Assembly: GCA_963719495.1 (NCBI GenBank)
Contig: CAVRCI010000005.1
Span: 32,001-96,000, forward strand
Origin: an uncultured Verrucomicrobiae bacterium
GTDB lineage: Bacteria > Verrucomicrobiota > Verrucomicrobiia > Chthoniobacterales > JAATET01
Length of the DNA: 64,000 nucleotides
Direction of reading: 5' to 3'
This document shows, piece by piece, positions 3,392 to 49,140 of the stretch. The notes beneath the pieces were generated by a model. The model was not told where the DNA came from. It did no database searches and saw only the letters and a list, made by a program, of their open reading frames with translations. The stretch's first letter is position 1; each line of letters opens with the position of its first letter. The position numbers and the translations under genes are program-made.

Positions 3392-3475
3392 GTAGCGACG
3401 GTCTGTGCCGACGTCCAAGCCCCGCGGATGATCGTCCGTTGAGAAGATCAGCGGCGGCCGCAGACGCGCCGCTAC
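3392..3475. repeat. Degenerate GTAG-type REP doublet, family B
   Basis: GTAGCGACGGTCTGTG ... CAGACGCGCCGCTAC resembles the copy at 8023-8112. Confidence 0.7.
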
Positions 3476-3924: not shown

Positions 3925-4040
3925 GGGGAGCGCACGCGTCCGCGCGTGCGAGCTGCGGCGTCCCGCCGCAGCAACTCGGCAAATCGATTAAAGCGAGAGA
4001 GCCGCCCACTCAAGGAGCGGCGATTTGCAATCGTCGGACC
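3925..4040. repeat. ~115-bp composite repeat ending in a family C palindrome (GGAGCGGCGATTTGCAATCGTCG)
   Basis: Near-identical to 48798-48914. Confidence 0.88.
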
Positions 4041-4085
4041 CACCCCACGACGAAACCGCAAATATTGCCCTTGAAGCAATCGTGG

Positions 4086-4852: not shown

Positions 4853-7057
4853 CTACGCGGTAGCGACCGCCGTGTAGCTGAGGCACGCGATCTCTTCGAG
4901 CGTCGTTTGGCCGCCGAGGACCTGAATCAGCCCTTCCTGATACAACGACAACACCCCCTCGCGGTTCGCCACCTTCCGCATCTCACTCTGCGGCGCGTTC
5001 CGCGCAATCATGTCGGAAATCTCTCCGCCGACCTCGCACATTTCCATGAGAGCCACCCGACCCGCGTAACCCGTCTCCGCGCACTCCGGACATCCTCCCG
5101 GCAGGTAGAACAGACTCTGGTCCCCCGCCACCACAACCCCGTTCCGTCCAAACCGCTCGCGCATCTCCTCCGTGATCTCCGCCGGGCGTTTGCAATGCGG
5201 ACAAAGCCGCCGCACGAGCCGCTGCGCCTGCGAGAGGGCAAGGGAGTCCGCCAGCAGATACGGCGCGACGCCCATGGAGATCAGGCGCGAGACGGCGCGC
5301 AGCGAATCGTTCGCGTGCAGCGTCGTGAGCACCAAGTGCCCGGTGAGCGCGGCGTTCACCGCCGCCGAGGCCGTCTCTTCATCGCGCGACTCCCCGATGA
5401 GAATGACGTCCGGGTCCGCTCGCAAAATGCGCCGCAGTCCCTCACCGAAATCAATCCCGTTGATCGGGTCGATCTGGGTCTGATTGATCCCCTCGATCTC
5501 GTATTCGATCGGATCCTCGATCGTGTGAATGTTGATCGACTCGTTGTTGATGCTGTTGATGAACGCATACAGCGACGTCGTCTTTCCGCTGCCGGTCGGC
5601 CCGGTGACGAGCACGAGACCCTGATCGCGAGTGAGCGTGTTCTTCACGATACCGGATTGGCGCGCGGACAGGTTCAGCTCGCTCAACTCCTTCACGCCAT
5701 CGCGTTTGTCCAGGAAGCGGATCGTGATTTTTTGCAATTCCTTGCTGCACGGGATCGCCGAGACGCGGCAATCGATCCGCCGCTGTCCGATCCGCATCCC
5801 GAAGCGCCCGTCCTCCGCCGTCTGCCGGCGCTGACCCATGTTCGAGTAATTTTTCAACAGACTCACCAGCCGCGGCAGGAGGTCCTCCGAGCACGAGTGG
5901 ATGAGATTGAGCTCCCCGTCGATCCGCGCCCGCAGCCGCGCGGTGTTGAAATACTTTTCCACGTGCAGATCACTCGCGCCCTGCGACGCCGCTCGGTAGA
6001 GGACCCATTGGACGATCTGCTCGGGCGTCGTGTTGATGTTCTCCGGATTGATCCGCTGCATCTCGCCCGGATCGATTTCCACGACGTTCGCGTCGTCCGA
6101 GTAGATCAGCTCCCGCTCCGCGACCTCGGCTCCGCCCGCCACGGCGCGGCCGCGATTTCGGTTGATCGCTTCGCGGATGCCCTCCGCGTCGGCGAGCACG
6201 TTGATGATCCGCACCGCATCCTGACCGCTGGACAACCATTCGTCCTCGAACGTGTAGTTGTCGCGGTCCGACGCCAGCAGGTAGATGACCCGCTTGCCGA
6301 TGTAGAGCGGGTAAACCGTGTGCTTCTCGAGCAGCACGTCCGGAAAGATCTCCTGCGCCGGGGTGAGTTCCGGCGCAAAAATCGGCTTTCCGGTCGTCAA
6401 ATAATTAAAAGCCGGCCCATGACTCGGCGGCAGCAGCCGGTAATCGCCGACCCGCCGCATGTCGATCTCGCCGAAGGAATGCTCGCTCTGCCGCAGCTTT
6501 TCCGCGTCGCCCTCCGACATCGGGTAGTTTGCCAGCATCCACCGCGTTGCCGTCCGCAATCCCGTGTTCCGCTCCGGCCCCTCGACGCCCTCGACCGGGC
6601 TCGTGGCCGCCAGCGGCGTCATCCGCACCCGCTCCATCACGTCGCCCAGCAGCCGTTCGTATTGCGCCCGCCCGACGAGCACCCGCTCGAAGAGGTAATG
6701 CGGCATCCCCCACGACTCGACCGTCGACGGATCGTAGTGCGCGCAGAGCAGCACCGGCCCGACCGCGCCGAATGGCAACCAGGGAGCGTCCGCGTCGCTC
6801 GCCCGCGCCACTTTTCGAAAAATCTGCTCCGCCCGCGTCGAGCACGCCGCCCGCGTGAGATCGTAGGGCACCATCGAGAATTTCTCGGCCAGCCACTCGA
6901 GCGCTTCGTCCGCGCCCACGCCGTTCGAAGCCGCGATCGTTTCGACGAAAAGATCCCCCTCCCGCGAGGCGGCCGGGGGACAAAACAACCCCCGCTCCTC
7001 GAGCAATCCGCTCAACCGCGAGGTGGGGAATTCGACTTCTTTCGCTTCGACCTGCAA
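4853..7057 (-). CDS. GspE/PilB family assembly ATPase (start uncertain)
   Basis: ASDLHVE, Walker A GPTGSGKTT, TIEDPIEY, LRADPDVILIGE, TGHLVLTTLH and a CPHC...CPEC Zn motif. Confidence 0.93.
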   Translation of the reverse strand: MQVEAKEVEFPTSRLSGLLEERGLFCPPAASREGDLFVETIAASNGVGADEALEWLAEKFSMVPYDLTRAACSTRAEQIFRKVARASDADAPWLPFGAVGPVLLCAHYDPSTVESWGMPHYLFERVLVGRAQYERLLGDVMERVRMTPLAATSPVEGVEGPERNTGLRTATRWMLANYPMSEGDAEKLRQSEHSFGEIDMRRVGDYRLLPPSHGPAFNYLTTGKPIFAPELTPAQEIFPDVLLEKHTVYPLYIGKRVIYLLASDRDNYTFEDEWLSSGQDAVRIINVLADAEGIREAINRNRGRAVAGGAEVAERELIYSDDANVVEIDPGEMQRINPENINTTPEQIVQWVLYRAASQGASDLHVEKYFNTARLRARIDGELNLIHSCSEDLLPRLVSLLKNYSNMGQRRQTAEDGRFGMRIGQRRIDCRVSAIPCSKELQKITIRFLDKRDGVKELSELNLSARQSGIVKNTLTRDQGLVLVTGPTGSGKTTSLYAFINSINNESINIHTIEDPIEYEIEGINQTQIDPINGIDFGEGLRRILRADPDVILIGESRDEETASAAVNAALTGHLVLTTLHANDSLRAVSRLISMGVAPYLLADSLALSQAQRLVRRLCPHCKRPAEITEEMRERFGRNGVVVAGDQSLFYLPGGCPECAETGYAGRVALMEMCEVGGEISDMIARNAPQSEMRKVANREGVLSLYQEGLIQVLGGQTTLEEIACLSYTAVATA

Positions 7058-7084
7058 GACTCCGGCAGTGTTGCGCCAAACCCC

Positions 7085-7651
7085 CTACGGCGCAACCACG
7101 ATCCCGGCCCCCGCGACCCCCACGTCCAGCGCTTTGAAGAACTTCCCCGTCCACTGCAACCGCACGACGTTAGGATCACTCGAACCCACTGCCGTGAATT
7201 CCGTGGGGACAAACGGCGATCCCGGGACGTCCGCGACCGGCGTCTTGAGGAGCATCAGCACCGCCTCCTCGTCCGCGAATCCGCTCGCCGCCGCGTTCGG
7301 CACCGTCTCCACGACCTGCCCGTAGTGCGTGACCGCCCGGTTGAGGAATTCCATCGCGTCCCCCGACACGCCGGACTTCGCGGCCGACAACAGCCCGCCG
7401 AGCCGCGGGATCGCGATCGCCGCCAGGATCCCGATCACCGCGATCGTCACCAACATCTCCGGCAACGAAAACCCCCTCCGGCCAGCGGCAGCTCGTCCCA
7501 AATCCGGAGGGCGAGGCTCCGCCAAGCCGTGATCTCCACGCGACGGTCGCAGCGTTTTCAGTCCACACCGTCCCGCAAGGCGCACGCCAACCACGGAAGC
7601 CACGGCTCGGCGGAGCCTCGCCCTCCGATCTGGGGACACGCTTCGCGGCAT
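7085..7651 (-). CDS. Type IV pilin-like protein with a 60-aa leader containing a family A REP
   Basis: RRG|FSLPEMLV motif. ATG at 7651 lies just after the upstream TGA at 7654-7656. Confidence 0.85.
   Translation of the reverse strand: MPRSVSPDRRARLRRAVASVVGVRLAGRCGLKTLRPSRGDHGLAEPRPPDLGRAAAGRRGFSLPEMLVTIAVIGILAAIAIPRLGGLLSAAKSGVSGDAMEFLNRAVTHYGQVVETVPNAAASGFADEEAVLMLLKTPVADVPGSPFVPTEFTAVGSSDPNVVRLQWTGKFFKALDVGVAGAGIVVAP
7505..7627. repeat. REP-like doublet, family A, inside a prepilin leader
   Basis: Arms 7505-7529 and 7603-7627. Confidence 0.9.
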
Positions 7652-7653
7652 AC

Positions 7654-8136
7654 TCAATAGGGCACGGCCGCCCCGCCCTTGGTCAGGTCCAGCTTGCGCA
7701 GCGTCAACACGTCATTCGGCAGATCCATTCCGTAGCCGCCCGGCACGTATCCCGCCAACGTCGCCGGTGCGAACGCCAGATAGGGCGCGGCCAACGCGTA
7801 GCGAGCCGGGTCGTCGGTTGCCCCCGACCACGCGCTGTTCGCGACCGATTTTCCTTTCGCCTGAACGAACGCCGCCGTCGCCAGATTGAGCGCCTCCGCC
7901 CGGGCGATCGCCAGGTGCGTTTCGCTGTCGTCCTTCACTTGCACGATGTTCGGAATCGCCAGGAATACGATCACGCCCACCAAAGCCACCGCCACGAGGA
8001 CCTCGACCAACGAAAACCCGGTGTAGCGGCGGTCTGTGACCGCCGCACTTCTCGTCGACAGCTTGTCGAGCGTTCCCGCTTCACGTCCCCGGCGCTCACA
8101 GAGCGCCGCTACAGGCAAATGCGACCATTCCCTCAT
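7654..8136 (-). CDS. Type IV pilin-like protein with a 40-aa leader containing a family B REP
   Basis: YTG|FSLVEVLV motif. ATGA overlap with the upstream stop at 8133-8136. Confidence 0.88.
   Translation of the reverse strand: MREWSHLPVAALCERRGREAGTLDKLSTRSAAVTDRRYTGFSLVEVLVAVALVGVIVFLAIPNIVQVKDDSETHLAIARAEALNLATAAFVQAKGKSVANSAWSGATDDPARYALAAPYLAFAPATLAGYVPGGYGMDLPNDVLTLRKLDLTKGGAAVPY
8023..8112. repeat. GTAG-type REP doublet, family B, inside a prepilin leader
   Basis: GTAGCGGCGGTCTGTGACCGCCG ... CGGCGCTCACAGAGCGCCGCTAC. Confidence 0.9.
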
Positions 8137-8567
8137 GGCCCGACCTGCACCTTGGGGTAGCTCCCCGCCGTCCACGTGGAAAACGTGACGTATTTACCCG
8201 TTTTCTCCATCGCGTCCGTGTTGAGCGCATCGCCGATCGTCGCGTGAGCTTTCAATTGATCTTTCGTCGACTTCGAGATGTAGGGCTCAATCAGGGCAAC
8301 CTTCTGCGCCACGGTTGTCTGCGCCTCGTAGAACGACCTCGCCGCATCGAGACTTCCCCGGCCCGTGACCGAACTCGCCTTGGAAACCCAGGTATTGAGC
8401 GCCTCCTGCAGCACCGCCTGCTGCTGCTTGACGACCACGCCCCGCGCATCCTGCGTCGCATTCGCGAACGAGGCGACCACCATGGACGCCATCACGCCGA
8501 TGATCGCGATTACGATGATCAACTCGATCAACGAAAACGCCCGGAAAGTTGTTGAGCCGATTTTCAT
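8133..8567 (-). CDS. Type IV pilin-like protein
   Basis: FRA|FSLIELIIVIAIIG motif with a 10-aa leader. Confidence 0.9.
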   Translation of the reverse strand: MKIGSTTFRAFSLIELIIVIAIIGVMASMVVASFANATQDARGVVVKQQQAVLQEALNTWVSKASSVTGRGSLDAARSFYEAQTTVAQKVALIEPYISKSTKDQLKAHATIGDALNTDAMEKTGKYVTFSTWTAGSYPKVQVGP

Positions 8568-8582
8568 GAAACCTTTCGCCGC

Positions 8583-8611
8583 AAAAGCCCCCGGCGTTTC
8601 CGCCGGAGGCT
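8583..8611 (-). terminator. Rho-independent terminator/attenuator after the putative major pilin
   Basis: Minus strand reads AGCCTCCGGCG-GAAA-CGCCGGGGGCT-TTT. Confidence 0.75.
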
Positions 8612-8645
8612 GGTGCGTTACAACGGGGTTGTTTCCCGGTGCAAA

Positions 8646-9062
8646 TTAATCGGCGGTGCCGCCACCTCCCTTTACGTAAGAAAAACCACTTCCAGCAGCG
8701 TAGTTGAGATATTGACGAACATTTGCGTCGTAATCTCCTACCGCCATGTCCAGTTTGTATGAATCCCCGGCAATATCTGGCGTGTCAGCGTCGACCACTC
8801 CAGCGATCATTTTTGTGACAGCCAAAGTCCCTGTACCCTCAGTGAAAGGATACCCCGCGGCACGCGCCGTCGAAGAAACCGAGGCAATCGTTTGTGCGTT
8901 CCGCTGATCGCTCGCAGTATTTGCACCACTGGTCAGCCCAGCAATATTCGGAATGGCGATCGCCGCGATGATACCGATGACGGCGATGACGACGAGGAGT
9001 TCGATCAAGCTGAAGCCCTTGCGGAGTGCAGCTTTCATTCTGAGTGGCGATTTTGTTTTCAT
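8646..9062 (-). CDS. Putative major type IV pilin
   Basis: RKG|FSLIELLVVIAVIGIIAAIAIP motif. Has its own upstream intergenic region and a downstream terminator. Confidence 0.88.
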   Translation of the reverse strand: MKTKSPLRMKAALRKGFSLIELLVVIAVIGIIAAIAIPNIAGLTSGANTASDQRNAQTIASVSSTARAAGYPFTEGTGTLAVTKMIAGVVDADTPDIAGDSYKLDMAVGDYDANVRQYLNYAAGSGFSYVKGGGGTAD

Positions 9063-9253
9063 GTGGTTTTGGTTTGTTGGTTGAGGTTTTTCCTAACGCA
9101 ACGAAGAATCCACCACACGAAACCATGCGTCGAGTCAGGGAATCCCCTATTTTCTCATAGGGAAACCCTGTAGCGCCTCAGAAGCAACCAACCCTGGAAC
9201 CGGCTCCAGCCGATCACCAACCCACAGCGCGAAGCGCCTGCCACCTCAACGCA

Positions 9254-9922
9254 TCAAGGCTCGATGATGTGATTGCGGATCGCATACCGCACCAGATCGC
9301 TGAACGTCGCCATCCCGAGTTTCCGCATGACCGCCGCCCGGTGCGTCTCCGCCGTCTTGACGCTGATCCCCAGCGTGGTCGCAACCTCCTTGTTGCTCTT
9401 GCCCTCCGCCAACAACTGCACCGTCTCCCGCTCCCGCAACGTCAGCCGCGATTCCTCACCCGCCTTCGCTTCCCAGCCCTCCGCATCCGCGGTCGCCCCC
9501 GCTTTCAGATAAGCGTCGAAGACCAAGTCGCTCACCTTCGAGCTGAAATACCGTTTGCCCTCGCCCACCGTGCGGATCGCCTTGAGCAGGTGCGTGCCCA
9601 CGTCCGACTTCAGCACGTAACCGGCGGCGCCCGCCTGAAACACCTCGTGCACGAGCCGCTCCGCGTCGTGCATCGTGAAGATGATCACCTTCGAATCCGG
9701 AGCGACCCGCCGGATCTGCCGCGTCGCGTCGATCCCGTTGAGTTCCGGCATAGAGATGTCGAGCAGCACGACGTCGGGCTGCAATTTCTCGGCCTGCTGC
9801 ACCGCGTCCCGCCCGTCGACCGCCTGACCGCAAACGCGACAGCAATCCTCACCTTCGATCATCGCCGCGATCCCCTGCCGCACGATCTCGTGGTCGTCGG
9901 CTATCAGGATTTTCAATTTCAT
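9254..9922 (-). CDS. NarL/LuxR-family response regulator
   Basis: IADDH, LLDISMP and YVLKS in the receiver domain. HTH LTLRERE...GKSNKEVA...TAETHR. Confidence 0.95.
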   Translation of the reverse strand: MKLKILIADDHEIVRQGIAAMIEGEDCCRVCGQAVDGRDAVQQAEKLQPDVVLLDISMPELNGIDATRQIRRVAPDSKVIIFTMHDAERLVHEVFQAGAAGYVLKSDVGTHLLKAIRTVGEGKRYFSSKVSDLVFDAYLKAGATADAEGWEAKAGEESRLTLRERETVQLLAEGKSNKEVATTLGISVKTAETHRAAVMRKLGMATFSDLVRYAIRNHIIEP

Positions 9923-9966
9923 CGCGCGGGGGTTACGGGAGTTTCCCGATGCCGTTTCTACGAAAC

Positions 9967-11013
9967 TCACCCCGCGATCGGATGGCAATCCAAAGAAACG
10001 AACGCCTGCACCTTCGTTCCAGCCGCGCTACCCGTCACCGAAAGGGTCCCGCCGAACTGCTCGATCCGCTCCCGCATTCCCAAGAGACCGACGCCCAAAG
10101 GGGCCATGGCGCCGCCCTCCCCGTCGAGTCCCACCCCATCGTCCGCGACTTGGACGGCCACCCCGGCCTCCAAGGCCTCGATCGAAATCTCCACCCGCGT
10201 CGCGCCCGAATGCCGGTGCACGTTCGACAGCGATTCCTGCACGACGCGAAAGAGCGCGGTGGCCACGTCCGACGGCAGCCGCGGCATCTCCGTCGCCGCC
10301 TTCAAGTCGACGACCGTCCCCGTCCGCTTCGTGAATCCATCGATGAACAGCCGGACCGCAAAAACCAGCCCCACCTCGTCGAGCAGCGGCGGGTGCAGCA
10401 GGTGCGAGATGGTTCGAATCTCGTCGCAGCACTGATTCGCCATTCCGCGCGTCTCGTCGACGATCCGCCGAGCCTGCGGACTCCGGTCGCCCGGCAGACC
10501 GTCGAGAATCGCCAGATTCATCTGGATCGCCGTGAGGACCTGCGCCGTCGAGTCGTGCAATTCCCGGGCGATCCGCCGCCGCTCGTCGTCCTGCGCGGCC
10601 AGCAATTTCCCCGAGAGCTGCCGCCGCTCATCGTCCGCCGCCCGCAACGAGTCGCTGAGCCGCTCGATCTCGCGCGCGAGCAACGACACCTCGTCGCGGC
10701 CCGCCGTCGCGAGCTTCAGCGGCTTCCCGCGCGCCTCCGCAACGCTCCGCTGCAGGTTGCGAATCGGTGCCAGCACCGCCCGGTCCAGCCCGAAAAAAAC
10801 CAGGAGAAACAATCCGCCACCCGCGACGGTGAACGCCACCAGCAGCACGCTCACGAATTGCCGCCGCGTCTCCACCGCCGAAGTCAACGGGTCCATCGCC
10901 GCCCCGCCGTCGAGAAACCCCGCCACCAATTGCGTCGAAAGCACGAACACCCCCGAAAAGAGCAGCACCATCGCGCCCGCGAAAATGAGCAGCGTCTTCG
11001 TGCGAATCTTCAT
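9967..11013 (-). CDS. HisKA_3 (NarX-like) sensor histidine kinase
   Basis: Two TM helices, a HAMP-like segment, ERRRIARELHD, QESLSNVHRHS, DDGVG and GLLGMRER. Confidence 0.93.
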   Translation of the reverse strand: MKIRTKTLLIFAGAMVLLFSGVFVLSTQLVAGFLDGGAAMDPLTSAVETRRQFVSVLLVAFTVAGGGLFLLVFFGLDRAVLAPIRNLQRSVAEARGKPLKLATAGRDEVSLLAREIERLSDSLRAADDERRQLSGKLLAAQDDERRRIARELHDSTAQVLTAIQMNLAILDGLPGDRSPQARRIVDETRGMANQCCDEIRTISHLLHPPLLDEVGLVFAVRLFIDGFTKRTGTVVDLKAATEMPRLPSDVATALFRVVQESLSNVHRHSGATRVEISIEALEAGVAVQVADDGVGLDGEGGAMAPLGVGLLGMRERIEQFGGTLSVTGSAAGTKVQAFVSLDCHPIAG

Positions 11014-11086
11014 AATTCAAGGGAGTGAGGCCGTCCCGTCCTCATGAATGCATTCGCGCGGACGAGACGTCCCCACTCCGATAAAT

Positions 11087-12352
11087 TCACCGCACCACCC
11101 CCGGCGCGCTCACCGCCGCCGGCGGCTTCGTCTTCGGCAGCATGATCTTGCTCAACGAGAAGATCGGGCCGTAAATCGCGTAAACCAGCAAACCCACGAA
11201 CACCCCCATCACCACGATCGTGATCGGCTCGAGAATCTTGTCGATCTGACCCGCGATCGTGTCCAGGTCGTCCTCGTAGTCCGCCGCGATCTCGTCGAGC
11301 ATCTCGTTCGCGCTGCCGGTCTCCCCCGCGATCTGCATCATCGCCGCCATCATCCGCCCATCCGGTCCGAGCCGCCCCGACTCCTGCAAAAAACTCTCCG
11401 GCAGCGACTCGCCCTCCGCCACGCGGTCACGGATCACCAGAAAAAATTCCCGAAAGTCCACGTGTGAAGAACTCGCCGCCACGATCTCGAGCGCCGTGCT
11501 GATCCGCACCCCCGCCTGCAGCAACATCGCGAGCACGCGGAAACTTACCGCCGCCGCCGACTTCCGAATGATCGGCCCCACCGTCGGCACCTTGACGATG
11601 AACCGCTGCACCGCCGGGATCCGGTAAATTTCCGGCCACTTCTTGAAAAAATAAAACAGCCCCACGAAAGGCAGCACCGCCAGGTAGGGTCGGTGCAGCA
11701 GCAGGTCCGAGAGCCACATCATGGCCCGAGTCGCCAACGGCAACCCCGCGCCCATCGACGCGTAGAGCTTCGCGATCGCCGGCACCAACGTGAAGCTCAT
11801 CACGATCACCACCGTCACCGCGATGAACAGCACGATCGCCGGATAGATCATCCCGCCTTTCAGCTTTTTGATGATCCGGAGCGTCTTCTGGTTGCCCGTC
11901 GCGATGCGCTGACACACCAGCGACAATTGACCCGATTCCTCGCCCGCCCGCACGAGGGCCAGCACGTCATCGGTGAACAGCTTCGGGTAACGCCCGAGCG
12001 CGTCGCTAAATTTTTCCCCCTCCAAGATTTGCTGGATCACCCCCGCGATCGCGCCGCGATACGCCGGCGACTTCACCCGCCCGGCCTGCATCCCGAGCGC
12101 CTTCACCGCCGAAATATTCCGGTCGAGGCAGCGCCCCAACCCCCCGAACAACGCGATGCGATCCTCGATCGTCGGCTTCTTCCCGGTCGAGCGATGCGTG
12201 AATTCGTCCGCGCCCGTGATCGACTTCACGACCGCCGTCTCCGTCACCGCCTTCCCCGATCCCAGGATCGCCAACTCGTCGTCGTCCGTGTCGACCATGA
12301 GGACCGTCCGCTTCGCCGTGATCGTGTCCGTGAGGGTAACCTGCTTCAGCAT
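11087..12352 (-). CDS. PilC/GspF platform protein
   Basis: AGEESGQL, MIYPAIV, AGETG and ILEPITI. Start taken as ATG 12352; the longer track ORF overlaps the next gene. Confidence 0.9.
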   Translation of the reverse strand: MLKQVTLTDTITAKRTVLMVDTDDDELAILGSGKAVTETAVVKSITGADEFTHRSTGKKPTIEDRIALFGGLGRCLDRNISAVKALGMQAGRVKSPAYRGAIAGVIQQILEGEKFSDALGRYPKLFTDDVLALVRAGEESGQLSLVCQRIATGNQKTLRIIKKLKGGMIYPAIVLFIAVTVVIVMSFTLVPAIAKLYASMGAGLPLATRAMMWLSDLLLHRPYLAVLPFVGLFYFFKKWPEIYRIPAVQRFIVKVPTVGPIIRKSAAAVSFRVLAMLLQAGVRISTALEIVAASSSHVDFREFFLVIRDRVAEGESLPESFLQESGRLGPDGRMMAAMMQIAGETGSANEMLDEIAADYEDDLDTIAGQIDKILEPITIVVMGVFVGLLVYAIYGPIFSLSKIMLPKTKPPAAVSAPGVVR

Positions 12353-12363
12353 CCGCAAAAAAA

Positions 12364-12786
12364 TCAGCGCACCGTCGGCCGCACCAGCTCCATGTCGTGA
12401 CTCCGCGTCGCGCTCGCGTCGCCGCCCGTCCACGTCCCCGCCGACCACGAACCGGTCGCCGCCGAAGCCCGGACGACCAGCGTGCAAGTCGTCCGCTCCA
12501 TCGACAACCCATCGACGTCGACCAGCACCGCCGGACTCGGCGAGAACGTCACCGACACCACGGCGGGATCCGCCGGGAGCAGAGCCGCAATCTCGTTGGT
12601 GTTCATCCCGAGATGGTAAAGCCGCGCCGCCTGCTCTTGAAGGTTTAACGCCCGCGCGACCCGCGCGTTCGCCTCGCCCTGCGCCGTGACCGCGAGCGTC
12701 ATCGACACCGCCGCCAACACCGCCACCGCGAGGATCGCGCCCGCGACCATCACTTCGACCAGCGAATATGCGCCCTTCCGGCTCAC
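12364..12786 (-). CDS. PilV-like minor pilin
   Basis: MSRKGA|YSLVEVMV. GTGA overlap with the upstream stop. Confidence 0.8.
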   Translation of the reverse strand: MSRKGAYSLVEVMVAGAILAVAVLAAVSMTLAVTAQGEANARVARALNLQEQAARLYHLGMNTNEIAALLPADPAVVSVTFSPSPAVLVDVDGLSMERTTCTLVVRASAATGSWSAGTWTGGDASATRSHDMELVRPTVR

Positions 12787-14117
12787 GGCGAAAACACCTC
12801 CAACCAGCCGTCCCGCGCCGTGAGCTGATCCAGCAAGCGCGGCTCCGGCTCCCGGGCAAAAGTCAGCGTCCCGGTCGGCACCGTGACGTCCCGATCCGAC
12901 CGCAGACCGCCCCGGATTCCGAGAGCGGGCGAGCTGATGTTCAGAGTCAGCGGGCAATTTTCCAGCGTGAAAATCCCCCGCCATTCAGCCGCCGCCCCCG
13001 ACAGGAAATTAAAGTTCACGCCAGTTCCATCCAGCTTCTTCACCGCGAACACGAGCTTCCGTTCACTGAACCCGGTAAAATCCACATTGACCAAGTCCGG
13101 TGATCCCAACGGCTGAACGAACACGACGAGCAACGCGATGTGGAGATCGGCCGCATCGCCCTCGGCCACGGTCGTCTGACCGGTGAATACGATCCGCGAT
13201 GTATTCCCCTCGATGAAAACGGCCTCCAGATTCGGGTTCGACAAATCGAGCGTCACCGTCCCAGCCCCGTCCGAGCTCCAGCCCACCCCGCTCGTGCCAC
13301 TGGTCCCGTCGACGAGCACCGGGCTCTTCAACTTCGCAAAGAGCTCATTCGGGCCCCCGCCATTCTTGATCACGTTCAACCGCCCGGCGAAATCCGCAGA
13401 CGTCCCGACATCTCCACTCGTCCGCGCGACGAACGGGAAGTTCGCCACCAGCACGTCGGGCGGCAAGCTCGACGGCGCGTTGAAGGTCGTCGCTGAGATC
13501 GAGCCCGCGCCCGCGAACCACACCACCGCTTCACCCAGCACACCGACGGATCCCGACACCAGGGTCGTCGGTGCCGCGTTGAGCGTCGGCTTGTTTCGGG
13601 TCAGCAACGTTCCCGCCAACTCCGGCGAATAAGAACGCAGCAAAACATTCCGGACGGTCGGAAAAGGATCGCCCGCCACCGCGGCCAACGCGACCGACCG
13701 CGTGACCGAGAAACCGGCACCGTCGGCCGGATTAAAGTGATTCCAACCATTCGGACCGACCGTGGACTCGAGCGGAACCAGCGCGGACCCAATCGCCGCC
13801 GTCGACATCACCCCCCAACCACCGCCCACGTCGGCGGTGACCGCCGGCGCGTTTGCGACATTCTTTGTCAGCAGACGCGTCGCGAAATACTGCCGCGCCA
13901 ACGCCGTCGCGTTCAGCTCGGCCACCCGCCGCTGCGAAGCATCCGTCATCGTCTCCACGTAAGCCGTCTCCGCCGACATCACCGCCACCCAACCCGCCGA
14001 CAGCGCCCCGCCCACCAGGATCACCACCAACACAATGAGTAACACCCCTCCCCTTGAGGAGCGGCGATTTTCAATCGCCGAACCAACCCTCAGGCGAAGC
14101 CTCATCCCCCCCCTCAT
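12783..14117 (-). CDS. PilX/GspK-like minor pilin with a family C REP in its leader
   Basis: SRGG-VLLIVLVVIL (no E5). ATGA overlap at 14114-14117. Confidence 0.72.
   Translation of the reverse strand: MRGGMRLRLRVGSAIENRRSSRGGVLLIVLVVILVGGALSAGWVAVMSAETAYVETMTDASQRRVAELNATALARQYFATRLLTKNVANAPAVTADVGGGWGVMSTAAIGSALVPLESTVGPNGWNHFNPADGAGFSVTRSVALAAVAGDPFPTVRNVLLRSYSPELAGTLLTRNKPTLNAAPTTLVSGSVGVLGEAVVWFAGAGSISATTFNAPSSLPPDVLVANFPFVARTSGDVGTSADFAGRLNVIKNGGGPNELFAKLKSPVLVDGTSGTSGVGWSSDGAGTVTLDLSNPNLEAVFIEGNTSRIVFTGQTTVAEGDAADLHIALLVVFVQPLGSPDLVNVDFTGFSERKLVFAVKKLDGTGVNFNFLSGAAAEWRGIFTLENCPLTLNISSPALGIRGGLRSDRDVTVPTGTLTFAREPEPRLLDQLTARDGWLEVFSP
14058..14080. repeat. Family C palindrome inside a pilin leader
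   Basis: GGAGCGGCGATTTTCAATCGCCG is identical to the intergenic copy at 48888-48910. Confidence 0.9.
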
Positions 14118-15211
14118 AACGCCGGAAACATCGGAACCGCAAAAAACAGCGAAGTCCGCCCCCCCATGCCCGCGTAGCTCGCCCGCGCCTCCGTCGCGCC
14201 GTCGGCCCCCACGGTCGCCGCCCCGAAATCCATCGCCGCCGGATCCGGCCACCAAAGAAAATAAAACGGCCCACCCCGCGCCACCTTCAACCGATCCACG
14301 GCATCACCCTCCACCGACACCCGCCGCGCCGACCGTTCGAACGCCACGACCACCGGACTGAACGCGACCGACCCGCCGCCCGCAATCTCCGGGTAAAACA
14401 CATCGTAAAAATCCGTCATCGCCGTCCCCACGTAGCGCCGCACGCTCACGTAAGTCCCCTTGGGCGAAGTCGTCGTCACGAAATCAACGTCGTAAATCGC
14501 GTGCACTACCAACTCCTCCGGATCCGCCGAAGGTTGCAGCAAAAACACCGACGCGTTCTGAGCCCCCGACGCACCGCGGTAGGACACGAAGGCCGCCGGA
14601 TTCGGGAGCAAAGCCCGAAACGCGTCCGGCGAATCCGTCCCCCGCCCGACCGCACCCGCCGCCACGGCAATAATCTGCGGACGTTGCTCGTTCAGCCCGC
14701 TGCGACCCAGACAGAAGACCGCGCTCGACCGCCCGACATCCTCCCAGAACAAATCGCGCAACCGATCCGCCGCCGCCCGCCGCCCGTAATTCGGAGCCAC
14801 GAACGCGTCCGTCCCCACGGCGTCGAGCCCATAGAAATTGAGCATCGCCGGCTTCCCGATCGTCACGAACTCGAACGTTGCCGTCGCCCGCCGCCCCGCG
14901 CCCAGACTTTGAAAAACGATCACCCCCACCGTGATCACCGCCACCCCGATCGCGAGAGCCACCGCCACCTCCACCAACGAGAAGCCCCTCGTCCAAGGGT
15001 AGGGCAGCCGGGCCCCGGGTGCCGTCGCCTTCACGCTCGCGCGCCCGACCCGACCGATTCGCTCCGCCAAGCCGGGGGTCTCGCGAGATAGCGGTCCCGC
15101 ATCCGAAGAACCTCGCGATTGGTGAAAGAAGTGGGCACCCGGCGGCGCGGCTGCCCTACCCGGGCAACGAAGCCGCCGGCGGCGGCTGAGGCTACCGGGC
15201 GGCGCGAGCAT
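14114..15211 (-). CDS. PilW-like minor pilin with a family D REP in its leader (start 15211 or GTG 15034)
   Basis: TRG|FSLVEVAVAL motif and position in the operon. Confidence 0.8.
   Translation of the reverse strand: MLAPPGSLSRRRRLRCPGRAAAPPGAHFFHQSRGSSDAGPLSRETPGLAERIGRVGRASVKATAPGARLPYPWTRGFSLVEVAVALAIGVAVITVGVIVFQSLGAGRRATATFEFVTIGKPAMLNFYGLDAVGTDAFVAPNYGRRAAADRLRDLFWEDVGRSSAVFCLGRSGLNEQRPQIIAVAAGAVGRGTDSPDAFRALLPNPAAFVSYRGASGAQNASVFLLQPSADPEELVVHAIYDVDFVTTTSPKGTYVSVRRYVGTAMTDFYDVFYPEIAGGGSVAFSPVVVAFERSARRVSVEGDAVDRLKVARGGPFYFLWWPDPAAMDFGAATVGADGATEARASYAGMGGRTSLFFAVPMFPAL
14997..15161. repeat. GTAG-type REP doublet, family D, inside a prepilin leader
   Basis: GGGTAGGGCAGCCG...GGGTGCC and its inverse GGCACCCGG...CGGCTGCCCTACCC. 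Another copy lies at 24218. Confidence 0.88.
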
Positions 15212-15833
15212 CTTTCGCCACCTCCCGCGGCTGCTTGGTCACGACCATCGGCACCCGGCTTCCGTTCGCTCCCGCCGCCGCGGAGCCGCCGCTCAGCGCC
15301 TCCGTCACGCGCGGCTCCAGCCGGATCGGGATGAAGATCTTCCGCGTCGGCTCGCTTGGCTGCGTCTCGATCCACTCGATTTCCATCACCGTTTCGAAGA
15401 TTTGGACCACCCGCAGCGTCTGCGTCTGACCCTCGAGCACGGGCGGAAGCGTCGTCCCATTCTCCAGGATCAAATCGCCGAAGAGCACCTTCCACCCATC
15501 CGCGCCCCGCGTCCGCCCCGTCACGCGCAGTCCGTCCAGCACGGCGCGGATCTGATTCTCCTCGCTGGCCGTGTTGTCCGGAGCCTCTTCGATCTCGAGC
15601 TTCGGCACCTCTTTTTTGGCAAATGGATTCCGCGCCGTCTCCGCCACCGACGCCGCCCGACGATCACCCGGCAGGATCCCGACCGCATCCGCGACGTCCT
15701 GCGACCAACCCGTTGACAAAAACGTCAGCGAGACCAAGGCGGCGACCAACCATCTCGCGATCCCCGCTCCCGGCCCATCCGCGGAATCCGCAAAATCCGC
15801 GGTCCAAAAAAATTCACCGTCCGAGGTCTTCAT
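15192..15833 (-). CDS. Exported protein, PilP-like by position
   Basis: ATGA overlap at 15830-15833, signal peptide and RNPF motif. Confidence 0.6.
   Translation of the reverse strand: MKTSDGEFFWTADFADSADGPGAGIARWLVAALVSLTFLSTGWSQDVADAVGILPGDRRAASVAETARNPFAKKEVPKLEIEEAPDNTASEENQIRAVLDGLRVTGRTRGADGWKVLFGDLILENGTTLPPVLEGQTQTLRVVQIFETVMEIEWIETQPSEPTRKIFIPIRLEPRVTEALSGGSAAAGANGSRVPMVVTKQPREVAKDARAAR
15777..15803. repeat. Short ATCCGC-periodic motif (family E-like) in a signal-peptide n-region
   Basis: ATCCGCGGAATCCGCAAAATCCGCGGT resembles the intergenic copy at 19283-19312. Confidence 0.6.
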
Positions 15834-16384
15834 GGTGCCGCCGTCACCTCCTTCGCGAGCAGCGGCACGTCGAGCACGAGATTGAGCCGGATGTCGTTGC
15901 CGTTCTCGCCGCGCACAATTTTGAGGTCCGTCACCCGTGACGACGGCATCGTCTCCTCGACCTGTCCGAGCCAATTGAGCGTCTTCGCAAAATCATCTTC
16001 AAAGGTCAGGTGCGCCCGCAGCACCCGCGGGATCGCGTCGTTCCCCGCGTTCGCCGCGACTTCGAAGCGCTGCGCCAGCGTGACGAGACCAGCCTCCTTC
16101 ACCCGTGAAGCGACGTTCAGCTCGCCGCCTTCCGGCGTGTCGACCTGCGACAGCGGACCCACCCACGCGTCGAGAAATTCCCGCATCGCGGCCGACGTCT
16201 CCTCGATCCCCCGCATGGCCGCGCGCTCCGTCCCGAGCAGCAGCTCCGTCCCGCCAGCCAGGGCCTGCGCGTCGGCCACCTCGTTCTGCAAAGCCACCAG
16301 ACGCTTACGCACCTCGACCACACCTTGAAGCATGAGCAAGGCGAGCAGTCCGACGACGATCACCGCGAAGTGCTTGCGGTTCAT
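15830..16384 (-). CDS. PilO-like protein
   Basis: N-terminal TM helix, coiled coil and ferredoxin-like C-terminus. ATGA overlap. Confidence 0.65.
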   Translation of the reverse strand: MNRKHFAVIVVGLLALLMLQGVVEVRKRLVALQNEVADAQALAGGTELLLGTERAAMRGIEETSAAMREFLDAWVGPLSQVDTPEGGELNVASRVKEAGLVTLAQRFEVAANAGNDAIPRVLRAHLTFEDDFAKTLNWLGQVEETMPSSRVTDLKIVRGENGNDIRLNLVLDVPLLAKEVTAAP

Positions 16385-31618: not shown

Positions 31619-34256
31619 TCTCGGCAGCCGCCTCCGGCTTCTCCGGGAAGCGCTGTTCGAGTTCGGCCAGCGCTTTTTCGGCCTCGAGCTCGTTCCCGGC
31701 GCGCTGGTAAGCGTCCGCCGCCCGGCGCAGAGCGCGCGGCGTCACGGCCGGATCGTCGTAGAGCACGGCGATCGTGAGGAAGCCCCGGGCCGCCGCGTCG
31801 TATTCCCCGGCGGCCATCTGGATGTCGCTCATGAGCATCCGGCCGGCCGCGTTGTATTTGCCCTCGGGCTGCAGCAGCAAGGCCTCCTCGCCGAATCGTT
31901 CGGCCTCGGTGGGCTCGCCCTTGCCGAGCGCGATTTCGCCCTTCGCGAGCAACGCCCGCGCGCGGCTCACCGGGTCGCGCGCCTCGGCCATGTAACGGTC
32001 GACTGGCCCCCGCGCCGCGTCGTATTTGTTCTGAGCCAGCCGCGCCTCGACCAGACTGATCAGCACCTCGGCGCTCACCGGAATCGAGGGGTCCCGCTCG
32101 GCCAGTGGCGCGAGGAACGACTCGGCCTTCGCGTAGTCGCCTTCCTCGAAGTATTGGTTCCCCAGCCAGATCATCACGTCCGAGGGCACGACGCCGGGCG
32201 TCGCCTTCTCCGCTTCGGCCGCGACGGCCGGGCGGTCTTCCCGGTAGAAGTGCGCGAGGATGATGCGCACGGTCGAGCGGTCGCCGAACTGCTCGGGATC
32301 GAGCTCACGCGCCCGCTCGAGGTGCGTGATCGCCTCCGGGTATTCCGCCTTCTCGAAGAGCGCCCATCCGATCCAATACTCGGCCTGACCCGCCGCGTTC
32401 GTCTCGGGATATTCTTCGAGCAAGCGCCGGAACGTGTCCCCCATTTCGTCGAATTTCTCCTGCTGGCCGAGCGTCAACGCCATTTGCTGGAGTGCGAGTT
32501 CCCGCTCGGACGCCTTCGGGAATTCTTCGACGAGCCGCCGGAAGTCCGCCATCGCGTCGTCGTAGGCCTGCGATTGCTGCGCGGCCAGGGCGCGCTGCGC
32601 GAGCGCCGATGCGAGCAGATCGCTCTTCGGATACGTGTCGACAAATTTACTGAACGTCTGCCGCGCCGCGATCCAATCCTGCGTCTGCGCGTAGCACCAA
32701 CCCAGCTTGAAGAGCGCCTGCTCGAGCTGGCGCTTCGGCAGCTTGGAGTCGAGCGACTTGGTGTAGAACTCGATCGCCTTCTCGTATTCGCCCTGCTTGA
32801 AGAGCGTCTCGGCTTTCAGCAGAAACGCCCGGCCCCGCTCGCGTGGATCGGTGCTGTTGGCGAGAAAATCGTCGACCTGCTCGAGCAGCTCGGCGCCATT
32901 GGTCTGATCGAGGCTGACCAGCCGCTGGAAGCGCGCGCTGGCCGCCGCGTCGCTGTCGGGATACTCGGCGAGGACCTGCTCGTAGAGCGCGATCGCGCCC
33001 TCCTTCTCGCCGAGCTGCCGCTTGGCATTGGCCGAGATCAGCATCGCCTCGGGGATCGCTTCCTTCGGGAGATCCGCGATTTCCTGATTCGTGAGACCGG
33101 CCGGCTCCTCGAATTCACCCGCTTCGTAGGCGAGCCGGATCGCGCCCAGTTTCGCCACGCCCCGCCAGTCGCCGATCGCCGGCTTCGCGAGCGCCTTTTT
33201 GAAGAGCTTGCGCGCCTCGTCGTCGCGGCCGAGTTCCGCCGCGATGGCTGCCGCTTTCACGGTCGCTTCGGCTTGGAGATCGGCTTTGTCCGCCTCGTCC
33301 CCGAGCCGGGCGTAGACGTCGAGCGCTTCCGCCTTCGCGCCGGCTTTCGAGAGCGACTCGGCGACGTAGAAATCGGCGGCGTCGCGGTAGGGGTTGTCGG
33401 TCCGCTTTTTGGCGAGCTTTTTGAAAATCTTGAGCGCTTCGGCTTGCTTGTCGTTGGCGTCCAGCGCGTTCGCCTCGTAGAAGCTCGCCGACAGCTGGAC
33501 GGCTTCGGATTCCGAATTTTCCCGCGCCGTCCGGAAGAGCTCGATCGCCGCGCCGTAGTTGTTTTCGCCGTAGTAGATCTCGGCCAACCGGTAGGCGCCC
33601 GATCCCACGAACTCGCCGGTGCGAAACTCCTCCAACAACCGCTCGTAACCCGTGCGCGCGGCCTCCGAATTCCCCAGGAATCGGTGACTCTCCGCCAACC
33701 GGAACATCGCCCCGTCCCGGCCCTCGGCCTTCGGCGAGGCGATGAGAAACTTCTCATATTCGTAGACCGCCATGTCGTACATCTCGCGTTTGTAGAAGCC
33801 GTTCGCCGCCAGCAGCGATTGATCCTCGGTCGCCGACGACGGCCCAAGCCGGATCGACCCCGCCTCGTCCCTTGGCGTCGCGGTGGGACTCCGGCGCTGC
33901 GGCTCGGTCGGCTGTGGGTCCCGGGGCGGCGGGGTGTTGGGAGTGGGCACCCGCTCGCCCCGGTCCGGCGTCGGCTGCGGAGTCGGGATCGGCCCGGGCG
34001 TCTCGTCGACCGGCGCGGGCGTCTCGTCCACCGACGCGGCGGGCTCGACGGCTTCCGCCGCGCGAACGGGCAGGTTATCCATCCAGGCCGGATTCTCGAT
34101 GGTCGCCGGATTCACCGGCTCGGCCCGCCGGATCTCGGGTTCGTCTCCGATGATCGGACCCGGCGTCACGGGGACCGCCCGCCGGATCTCAGGCTGCTGC
34201 GCCCCGACGCTGCCCGCGATCAACCCGAGCGCCATGATCGCGAAAATTTTCCTCAT
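31611..34256 (-). CDS. Exported multi-TPR protein
   Basis: Signal peptide from ATG 34256 (ATGA overlap), Pro-rich linker and many TPR motifs. Confidence 0.87.
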   Translation of the reverse strand: MRKIFAIMALGLIAGSVGAQQPEIRRAVPVTPGPIIGDEPEIRRAEPVNPATIENPAWMDNLPVRAAEAVEPAASVDETPAPVDETPGPIPTPQPTPDRGERVPTPNTPPPRDPQPTEPQRRSPTATPRDEAGSIRLGPSSATEDQSLLAANGFYKREMYDMAVYEYEKFLIASPKAEGRDGAMFRLAESHRFLGNSEAARTGYERLLEEFRTGEFVGSGAYRLAEIYYGENNYGAAIELFRTARENSESEAVQLSASFYEANALDANDKQAEALKIFKKLAKKRTDNPYRDAADFYVAESLSKAGAKAEALDVYARLGDEADKADLQAEATVKAAAIAAELGRDDEARKLFKKALAKPAIGDWRGVAKLGAIRLAYEAGEFEEPAGLTNQEIADLPKEAIPEAMLISANAKRQLGEKEGAIALYEQVLAEYPDSDAAASARFQRLVSLDQTNGAELLEQVDDFLANSTDPRERGRAFLLKAETLFKQGEYEKAIEFYTKSLDSKLPKRQLEQALFKLGWCYAQTQDWIAARQTFSKFVDTYPKSDLLASALAQRALAAQQSQAYDDAMADFRRLVEEFPKASERELALQQMALTLGQQEKFDEMGDTFRRLLEEYPETNAAGQAEYWIGWALFEKAEYPEAITHLERARELDPEQFGDRSTVRIILAHFYREDRPAVAAEAEKATPGVVPSDVMIWLGNQYFEEGDYAKAESFLAPLAERDPSIPVSAEVLISLVEARLAQNKYDAARGPVDRYMAEARDPVSRARALLAKGEIALGKGEPTEAERFGEEALLLQPEGKYNAAGRMLMSDIQMAAGEYDAAARGFLTIAVLYDDPAVTPRALRRAADAYQRAGNELEAEKALAELEQRFPEKPEAAAESE

Positions 34257-44946: not shown

Positions 44947-44964
44947 CAAGCGAACCCCTCACCC

Positions 44965-44998
44965 CAATCCGCAATCCGCAATCCGCAATCCGCAATCC
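44965..44998. repeat. Heptamer tandem repeat (CAATCCG)x4 plus CAATCC
   Basis: Read directly. Confidence 0.92.
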
Positions 44999-48797: not shown

Positions 48798-49140
48798 GGG
48801 GAGCGCACGCGTCCCCGCGTGCGAGCCGCGGCGTCCCGCCGCGGCAACCCGGCAAATCGAGCAAAGCGAGAGAGCCGAAGAACTCAAGGAGCGGCGATTT
48901 TCAATCGCCGAACCAACCAAATTCCGCGAAGCGGAACAAAAATCCCCCCGGCAACCCGCGCCAGCGGGAGCCGACCGCATCCCCCTTCCGTATCCTTCGC
49001 GACCTTTGCGACCTTCTGTTCAAAACCCGTATTCGAATTCCGCAAGAGTGTTGACTCGCGCTCTCCCGAGCGTCTCGCCCTTCGGGCTGCATCGCAGAGC
49101 CGATGCAGTCTGCCCCGAGCCTTCCCAGCCTCCGGTGCTC
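48798..49140. repeat. Multi-family repeat cluster (composite C, F, J)
   Basis: 48798-48914 matches 3925-4040. 48995-49024 matches 40298-40327. 49050-49140 matches 60116-60206. Confidence 0.87.

Follow-up and report, generated by a model that had tools for sequence, protein, structure and literature searches.

How do four genes of one filament operon come to carry palindromic repeats in their leader peptides, and are those leaders made? The question is raised by a 64,000-nucleotide (nt) stretch of the genome of an uncultured Verrucomicrobiae bacterium (the window; positions 32,001–96,000 of contig C5 in a 4.54-Mb assembly of 16 contigs with 63% G+C, here called G000). A minus-strand type IV filament operon, similar to those of type II secretion systems (T2SS) and type IV pili (T4P), spans approximately 4.8–19 kb of the window and encodes two T2SSE ATPases, a T2SSF platform protein, and several proteins with a prepilin N-terminal methylation motif. 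In four of its genes, a repeat (elements A–D; Table 1) lies directly upstream of the prepilin cleavage motif, whose glycine at position −1 (Gly-1) is the last leader residue, and the four elements represent four separate repeat families dispersed over the genome. We consider it probable that they are recent in-frame insertions between a retained start codon and the cleavage site, which are read through into long, cleaved leaders and are nearly neutral.

The families were delimited from a k-mer adjacency graph, single-linkage clustering having been dropped because it merged all intervals into one family. They comprise 135 intervals for A, 61 for B, 257 for C, and 87 and 33 for the two ends of D. 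A blastn-short search of the whole genome gave 66, 48, 102, and 82 match lines for A, B, C, and D, respectively, self-matches included. Element A resembles a hairpin-forming doublet (REPIN) of repetitive extragenic palindromic (REP) units, with 42-nt arms and a 69-nt spacer; its predicted fold has an energy of −103.6 kcal/mol (z-score −9.3), and a TTG codon at 7504 lies inside the stem. The core of element B measures 90 nt, exactly 30 codons, and folds at −53.3 kcal/mol (z −5.4). Its borders are exact in an alignment with eight other doublets (nine loci, 89–93 nt, modal length 90), and of the four elements it alone was seen to carry the GTAG tetranucleotide at the end of the unit. In the upstream arm of B (8090-8112, compared with 8023-8045), a paired G-to-C and C-to-G change relative to the family consensus keeps a small stem, which reads GGCGCTC...GAGCGCC instead of GGCGGTC...GACCGCC.

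Element C forms only an 8-bp stem (−19.1 kcal/mol, z −0.2). Its family includes a REPtron-like arrangement, in which a Y1 transposase gene (C4:155919-156146) is flanked by inverted family C units; for the 11 Y1_Tnp matches above the cut-off in the genome, no flanking units of family A, B, or D were found. At two places in the window (3925-4064 and 48798-48938), another conserved repeat of approximately 80 nt, 93% identical between the sites, stands ahead of a family C unit and forms with it a composite of approximately 140 nt. Element D is like a miniature inverted-repeat transposable element (MITE): its 164-nt full-length copies share approximately 70–72% identity with conserved ends, and its terminal inverted repeats pair in the fold (−108.9 kcal/mol, z −6.8). 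A target-site duplication was not evident in an alignment of eight copies. Units resembling D also form tandem arrays at C11:174931-175652 and C13:721667-722543, with periods of approximately 281 and 262 nt. No Rfam family matched any of the four elements, and a terminator scan scored none of the large hairpins as an intrinsic terminator, the only hit being a weak site at 14999-14985.

The sequence-only reading from which this work started had put these elements at the right coordinates, on the minus strand and upstream of the cleavage motif, except that the conserved unit of C is wider (14057-14104) than the 14058-14080 it gave. It had described all four as palindromes with further copies in the window. 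Dispersal holds genome-wide for every family, but within the window B has no copy other than its own two arms (up to three mismatches allowed), and strong folds were obtained for A, B, and D but not for C.

The elements prove to be insertions on comparison with relatives. When 60 relatives were searched with B and with D, the orthologues aligned only from about residue 30–39 of B and residue 64–76 of D onward. The elements are absent from the orthologues in three genomes of the same genus, whose leaders have 5–14 amino acids (aa), in line with what the sequence-only reading had proposed as a check. In G004, with 73–79% aa identity to G000, the leaders are MKRRG (5 aa) for A, MTRRAA (6 aa) for B, and MRGRFGRVG (9 aa) for D. 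In G002 they have 5, 13 (counted from the nearest in-frame GTG), and 11 aa, respectively, and in G005, where the A orthologue was not found, those of B and D have 9 and 14 aa. Alignment of the DNA with that of the relatives shows clean gaps facing the elements, and the element arms are 94–100% identical to other genomic copies. The alignments identify the elements as recent, lineage-specific insertions. A further genome, G016, is unpublished, and its publication needs the permission of the depositors; it adds two short leaders (8 or 22 aa for B and 18 aa for D) and one alignment row, and no conclusion rests on it.

Some apparent exceptions were discarded. In a hidden Markov model search, the D orthologues of G008 and G016 seemed to align to the long D leader; these were low-complexity matches, and the leaders have 6 and 18 aa. 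The 32-aa leader of the element C host in G004 was considered as another repeat and rejected, its sequence being unique in that genome. In the G004 pilin D leader, the stretch CGGTAGGGTCGGC just before Gly-1 agrees in 10 of 13 positions with the terminal repeat at the left end of D, GGGTAGGGCAGCC (window 15161-15148 compared with approximately 3415-3440 of locus L039); a preferred target, a footprint, or chance may lie behind this resemblance. A metagenome scan with the mature B protein yielded no close relative and no pre-insertion allele from the same species, the best full-length match being 63% identical with a 14-aa leader. Among public sequencing runs, one DNA run contained 0.25 of the sampled words. 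Three public runs gave only short, low-depth contigs ending at the element borders, in which no empty-site allele, start, or end was readable, and many contigs of a soil run (X2) matched only the arms of B with other spacers and represent other copies or other organisms.

Whether the inserted sequence is translated depends on where ribosomes start. Of the 1410 repeat intervals (27 families) in the genome, 953 fall between genes, 285 in open 5' extensions of genes, 36 at the edge of a coding core, and 136 inside coding cores; these classes rest on a crude codon-usage gene model, whose 3507 genes cover 81% of the genome. Frames readily stay open at 63% G+C, as the 285 intervals in open extensions illustrate, and the start site is therefore the crux. 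The elements end 1–6 codons before Gly-1, and there is no ATG, GTG, or TTG between any of them and Gly-1, so that any production of a cleavable precursor would require part of each element to be translated.

For B, C, and D, comparison with the relatives indicates that the ancestral start is retained upstream of the element and in frame. The context of the B start, ggtgcaggtcgg(g/a)ccATGA, is common to G000 and G004, and codon 8 is separated from Gly-1 by the 90-nt element. The start of the C host overlaps the upstream stop as ATGA or GTGA in all six genomes compared, with leaders of 9–32 aa. For D, an ATG followed by 11 nt and CGGTAG is found in both G000 and G004; the ATG at 15211 is the positional homologue of the G004 start, and a Shine-Dalgarno-like GGGAGGTGG stands before it in G000. 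Through B, C, and D, both other frames are interrupted by stops and only the pilin frame is free of them, and the chance of the pilin frame being open in all four elements is 2/81. The TTG in A and the GTG in D that could serve as alternative starts belong to the element consensus (for D as seen in the alignment of copies) and sit within stems of about −104 and −109 kcal/mol. Codons within such long stems are a poor site for fresh initiation, yet the stems are no obstacle to a ribosome that is already translating. Public gene calls give proteins of 160, 444, and 365 aa for B, C, and D, which reflect only the choice of the gene caller, and the coding-core estimate begins inside the element in B (8082) and D (15082) and past it in C (14039) and A (7459). 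On these grounds translation through the elements appears likely for B, C, and D, and possible for A.

In these respects the sequence-only reading was borne out. Its leader lengths of 60, 40, 24, and 76 aa were recovered from the longest ATG open reading frames (ORFs), the ATGA overlaps at 8136 and 14117 are real, the pilin frame is free of stops through each element, and the element-free pilins of the cluster do have leaders of 6, 10, and 16 aa. It had also counted four pilin genes with an element. This holds for A, B, and D; the C host has no pilin match in Pfam or NCBIfam and lacks F+1 and E+5, and we therefore speak of three pilins and one presumably minor-pilin-like protein. Pilin D, with the motif GFSLVEV, falls just under both cut-offs (N_methyl 16.8 against 21.2 in Pfam; TIGR02532 16.1 against 16.3 in NCBIfam). 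The mature parts of the host genes are intact with their motifs kept, and so are the other operon components, namely both ATPases and the platform protein. The ratios of nonsynonymous to synonymous substitution (dN/dS) against G004 are 0.30 for A, 0.13 for B, and 0.23 for D, compared with 0.16 and 0.47 for element-free neighbours; these values are averages over the whole divergence of G000 and G004 and hence blind to a recent relaxation. Judged by sequence, the three pilin genes do not look decayed and appear functional.

In the scheme that we propose, four unrelated mobile palindromic families (REP/REPIN-like doublets for A and B, a single REP unit for C from a family with its own Y1-transposase REPtron, and a MITE-like element of approximately 165 nt for D) are recent arrivals at the 5' ends of four operon genes. 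The genes of the operon are packed stop-on-start (ATGA or GTGA) with almost no intergenic DNA, and so the insertions lie between the ancestral start and the cleavage site; in such a spacer-free operon, the leader may be the sole place left for them. Ribosomes most likely initiate at the old start codon and then read through the element, and the outcome would be Arg-rich leaders of 24–76 aa replacing leaders of 5–14 aa. The encoded leaders contain 15 Lys and Arg against 4 Asp and Glu residues in A, 8 against 5 in B, 7 against 1 in C, and 14 against 3 in D, a composition in keeping with the positive-inside rule. Class III signal peptides have a leader that does not leave the cytoplasm and is cut off after Gly-1 on the cytoplasmic face (PMC4471445, in the part of the paper available). 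Because the leader is cytoplasmic and would be removed by the A24 prepilin peptidase, the mature subunit would remain unchanged, and in-frame, stop-free insertions should be nearly neutral, while out-of-frame or stop-bearing ones would be purged. Across the wider phylum, most pilin–pilin junctions have real spacers with the ATG 7–16 codons before Gly-1, which may be why the phenomenon becomes visible in a tightly packed lineage.

Translation through the elements predicts that repeat-bearing leaders with a retained start should recur in frame, and they do so in G000 and in its relatives. A whole-genome motif scan gave 56 matches, 55 pilin-like and one false, and a repeat interval lies within 100 nt upstream of Gly-1 in six of the 55 genes, namely A, B, D, and three others. 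At C2:392593, a family C unit is contained in a 37-aa leader whose start is a GTGA overlap. This overlap is common to G001, G003, G004, and G005, whose leaders of 20, 7, 33, and 43 aa, respectively, are all in frame, and the leader in G005 contains a palindrome of −67 kcal/mol with 66 matches in that genome. The orthologues of C5:140297 in G004, G003, and G001 have a common ATG and a 25–26-aa leader with the unit AAGGAGCGGCGGCTTCCAGCCGCCG, which has 25 matches in G001 and 11 in G003 and is present in G004 as this copy only; the orthologue in G002 has a 10-aa leader without the unit. In another genus, the B orthologue of G012 has an ATGA-coupled ATG and a 54-aa open leader with an (ATTTTGG)n...(CCAAAAT)n hairpin of −69 kcal/mol. 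The heptamer repeat also occurs on eight other G012 contigs, and a control gave 0 matches.

Among the repeat-bearing leaders with an independently anchored start, seven of eight are in frame; the probability of at least seven of eight at a chance of 1/3 is 17/6561 = 0.0026. The seven are B, C, D, and C2:392593 of G000, B of G012, the G005 orthologue of C2:392593, and the G004/G003/G001 clade counted as one. Excluded were A, which is unanchored, the 33-aa leader of the C2 gene in G004, the 20-aa leader in G001, the G002 orthologue, and a leader at C13:237651. In the last of these (C13:237608-237651, locus L143, outside the window), a 36-nt perfect-type palindrome of family 49, TGCAAAACT..GCGGCCGC..AGTTTTGCA, holds the stop of the upstream gene and the pilin ATG as an overlapping TGATG and encodes the first 8 of 15 leader residues; only partial similarity was found in G001. 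The recurrence in G012, G005, and the G004/G003/G001 clade is as expected if the elements are translated.

Several observations weigh against read-through of the elements into cleaved leaders. The start of A is not anchored: its ATG at 7651 sits 2 nt past the upstream stop, and the G004 spacer is unrelated and offers no positional homologue. In addition, two of the three frames through A are free of stops. The TTG in A and the GTG in D would give ordinary leaders of 10 and 17 aa. Codon usage inside the elements is not coding-like, although this is expected of young insertions and is therefore uninformative. Long leaders are rare elsewhere; in a survey of 80 Verrucomicrobiota loci with 347 pilin motifs, the distance to the nearest in-frame start is less than 20 aa for 329 motifs and at least 28 aa for only six. 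An A24 peptidase is encoded, and cleavage of leaders of 40–76 aa is presumed, the described range being 6–26 aa (PMC4471445, in the part available). The leaders of B, A, and D lie outside this range and that of C inside it, and A and D would come within it only with the in-element starts. The recurrence, too, has its counter-case, since in G000 itself the homologous ATG of C5:140297 is out of frame, with only a GTG (37 aa) or a TTG (26 aa) in frame; the G002 orthologue of C2:392593 was left out of the count, and the cases in relatives were noticed while orthologues of the G000 cases were being inspected and are not a blind sample. Finally, a search of public sequencing runs listed none with RNA of G000.

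An alternative is that the elements are untranslated intercistronic repeats and the long leaders open-frame artefacts of the high G+C content, with translation starting inside or just after the elements, at TTG 7504 in A, at GTG 15033 in D, and at a non-canonical codon such as CTG 8062 in B. The frequency of repeats in open 5' extensions, the ordinary leader lengths from the TTG and the GTG, and the codon usage of the elements all agree with this explanation, and N-terminal REPs are in most cases annotation artefacts according to the part of PMC3733652 available. However, B and C lack a canonical in-frame start downstream of the element, the TTG and the GTG are buried in very stable stems, and the ancestral starts are kept in frame, as are seven of the eight anchored cases. 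We regard this alternative as unlikely.

The sequence-only reading had suggested that cleavable leaders are a safe harbour for the insertion of such repeats. The genome does not show leaders to be a preferred target. A repeat within 100 nt upstream was found in 6 of 55 pilin-like genes (10.9%, measured from Gly-1) and in 287 of 3147 genes in general (9.1%, measured from the coding core in the crude gene model), and the idea of pilin leaders as an insertion hot spot was rejected. Copies also occur in regions that remain in the mature protein. Intervals of the palindromic families lie within called cores in 74 cases, 26 of them with same-frame coding potential on both flanks, and family A units are in frame inside ClpB, FtsK, an ATP-dependent DNA ligase, and a major facilitator superfamily (MFS) transporter, with Pfam domains on both sides in all four cases checked. 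The earlier statement that no family copy falls in a mature-protein region thus holds within the window but not for the genome, in which, to judge from these four genes, translated repeats are tolerated. At the same time, coding DNA is strongly depleted of repeats, with 136 of the 1410 intervals in the 81% of the genome that is coding, and the leaders accordingly behave like permissive DNA, unlike mature coding sequence. These comparisons speak for tolerance, not targeting, leaders being one permissive spot like the 5' ends of genes, protein loops, and intergenic DNA. Tandem heptamer families (CCAATCC/GGTGATT types; k-mer families 10, 57, and 58), for example at window 44964-44998, are often found in coding cores, with 24 of 77, 13 of 23, and 10 of 20 intervals, respectively, inside called cores, far above the palindromic families. 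A further family (k-mer family 27) consists of a 33-nt repeat, AGTCGCGCCCTCACGGGCGCGCGGATTGAAACT, in 46 copies of constant length and is like the repeat of an array of clustered regularly interspaced short palindromic repeats (CRISPR).

The elements might instead have been kept because they are useful, as mRNA hairpins that influence translational coupling, processing by ribonucleases (RNases), or the stability of transcript segments and in this way set the proportion of minor to major pilins. Very stable hairpins stand exactly at four cistron junctions, the paired change in the arm of B preserves a stem, and leaders with repeats are found again at the same junction in several congeners; control of this post-transcriptional kind is discussed for intercistronic REPs in PMC3733652 (part of the text). 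On the other side, pilin genes are not enriched over genes in general, close relatives do without the elements, and a shared function is difficult to reconcile with four unrelated families, one of which (C) is nearly structureless. We give this explanation little credence. Little more than a speculation is also the joint reading, in which the leader would be a recurrent landing pad in coupled filament operons, leaders of up to 76 aa (approximately three times the described range) would be processed, and the hairpins would be kept for setting coupling and the pilin ratio. That the insertions disabled the genes, leaving four young pseudogenes or a decaying operon with frames open by chance, is very improbable: the insertions are indeed young, with arms nearly identical to other copies, leaders of this length are unprecedented in the relatives surveyed, and the dN/dS averages would miss a recent relaxation, but all four frames would be open with a chance of only 2/81, the mature parts, motifs, ATPases, and platform protein are intact, and the repeat-bearing leader of 25–26 aa stays open, with its ATG, in G004, G003, and G001.

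The features of the operon are collected in Table 1. The probable major pilin gene (8646-9062) has a lower G+C content and atypical codon usage and is the only pilin of the block that the codon-usage gene model did not call. Genes for a LuxR-type response regulator and a histidine kinase (9254-11013, minus strand) lie midway along the operon, with the pilin block on one side and the T2SSF gene on the other. On the opposite (plus) strand, the T2SSE ATPase gene is overlapped by a 917-aa ORF (4907-7660), which is not a gene but a shadow ORF of the high-G+C sequence. The Peptidase_A24 gene is located outside this operon, on contig C9 (42.7 and 31.9 bits).

Table 1. Elements A–D, their host genes, and neighbouring genes of the filament operon (window coordinates).
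Feature	Position	Strand	Details
T2SSE-type assembly ATPase	4853..7057	-	PF00437, 339 bits
Pilin A ORF	7085..7651	-	ATG 7651, 188 aa; N_methyl 30.1 bits, TIGR02532 37.4 bits, both above cut-off
Pilin A leader	G-1 codon 7474-7472	-	60 aa from longest ATG start 7651
Pilin A alternative start	TTG 7504	-	10-aa leader
Element A	7490..7642	-	inverted doublet of unit CGGAGGGCGAGGCTCCGCCGAGCCGTG; arms 7490-7531 and 7601-7642
Pilin B ORF	7654..8136	-	ATG 8136, ATGA overlap with upstream stop; N_methyl and TIGR02532 above cut-off
Pilin B leader	G-1 codon 8019-8017	-	40 aa from longest ATG start 8136
Element B	8022..8113	-	GTAG-tagged REP doublet, GTAGCGGCGGTCTGTGACCGCCG and inverted copy; core 8112-8023
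Element-free pilin	8133..8567	-	10-aa leader MKIGSTTFRA
Element-free pilin, probably major subunit	8646..9062	-	16-aa leader
T2SSF-type platform protein	11087..12400	-	PF00482, 144.6 bits
Element-free pilin-like gene	12364..12795	-	GTGA-coupled start, 6-aa leader; N_methyl 18.4 bits, under cut-off
Element C host	12783..14117	-	444 aa; ATG 14117, ATGA overlap with upstream stop
Element C host leader	G-1 codon 14048-14046	-	24 aa; ends RGG, then hydrophobic VLLIVL
Element C	14057..14104	-	single 48-nt REP unit
Pilin D ORF	14114..15211	-	ATG 15211, 365 aa
Pilin D leader	G-1 codon 14986-14984	-	76 aa from longest ATG start 15211
Pilin D alternative starts	TTG; GTG 15033	-	29-aa leader (TTG); 17-aa leader (GTG)
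Element D	14998..15161	-	approximately 165 nt, MITE-like; terminal inverted repeats GGGTAGGGCAGCCG / CGGCTGCCCTACCC
Gene upstream of D	15192..15974	-	final 20 nt overlap D ORF; GGGAGGTGG 7-15 nt before ATG 15211

The findings extend the known tolerance of in-frame repeat insertions and represent neither a new kind of system nor a targeted harbour. Their particular value lies in the frame: Gly-1 and the conserved coupled start fix it from both ends, and an N-terminal REP therefore cannot be dismissed here as a misannotation, the doubt that otherwise attaches to N-terminal REPs. Should leaders of this length be produced and cleaved, the prepilin peptidase would be indifferent to leader length well past 6–26 aa, and cleaved leaders would join protein loops and termini as sites at which genomes can take up mobile palindromes while the mature protein pays no price. 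For annotation, the locus is a warning that leader length alone cannot set the starts of pilin genes in repeat-rich genomes of high G+C content.

Intercistronic hairpins of REPs and bacterial interspersed mosaic elements (BIMEs) in operons, such as that between malE and malF of Escherichia coli, can alter the relative expression of the flanking genes. REP/BIME elements of this kind lie in true untranslated spacers, whereas the junctions described here are spacer-free and the elements lie downstream of a retained start.

A closer parallel is provided by the GTAG/CGTC REPs (Di Nocera et al. 2013, PMC3733652; this and the following comparisons concern the portions of the cited papers available to us). 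As in G000, these are short palindromes that are mostly extragenic, with a minority in frame in ORFs, and in-frame intragenic copies were described as most numerous in another verrucomicrobium, Opitutus terrae. A dimer codes for 20–30 aa, both N- and C-terminal ends of ORFs can carry copies, a DNA ligase gene contains such a repeat in that survey and in G000 alike, and element B bears the same GTAG end. The authors cautioned that N-terminal REPs are mostly misannotated and probably non-coding; in the present genes, unlike in those N-terminal cases, the Gly-1 motif and conserved coupled starts set the frame and no start follows the element. In their list of decorated ORFs (supplementary file 3), the words 'pilin' and 'methylation' have 0 occurrences. 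The sequence-only reading was aware of no description of such a pattern; in-frame REPs (PMC3733652) and a MITE in a signal peptide (PMC2229807) are in fact published, and our full-text literature search found no description naming prepilin leaders as hosts of REPs or MITEs.

The Rickettsia palindromic elements (RPEs) are similar in that mobile palindromes stand in frame in protein-coding genes, are absent from orthologues, and are tolerated through permissive positions of the protein (PMC2229807, PMC3733652). Elements B, C, and D likewise are in frame, free of stops, and absent from orthologues, and A has an open frame with an unanchored start. Translation of RPEs is experimentally supported (PMC2229807, PMC3733652), the elements of G000 being known from their sequence. 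RPEs remain in the mature protein, whereas the residues inserted here should be removed together with the leader. In the MITE-ORF fusion YPO1552 of Yersinia (Delihas 2008, PMC2229807), a mobile palindrome supplies N-terminal residues related to export, as it may do in the present pilins. In YPO1552, however, the protein is putatively new and the MITE makes up part of a signal peptide of class I type, whereas in the filament operon the elements would extend class III prepilin signal peptides that were already established, and would do so on the side that is cytoplasmic and cleaved off.

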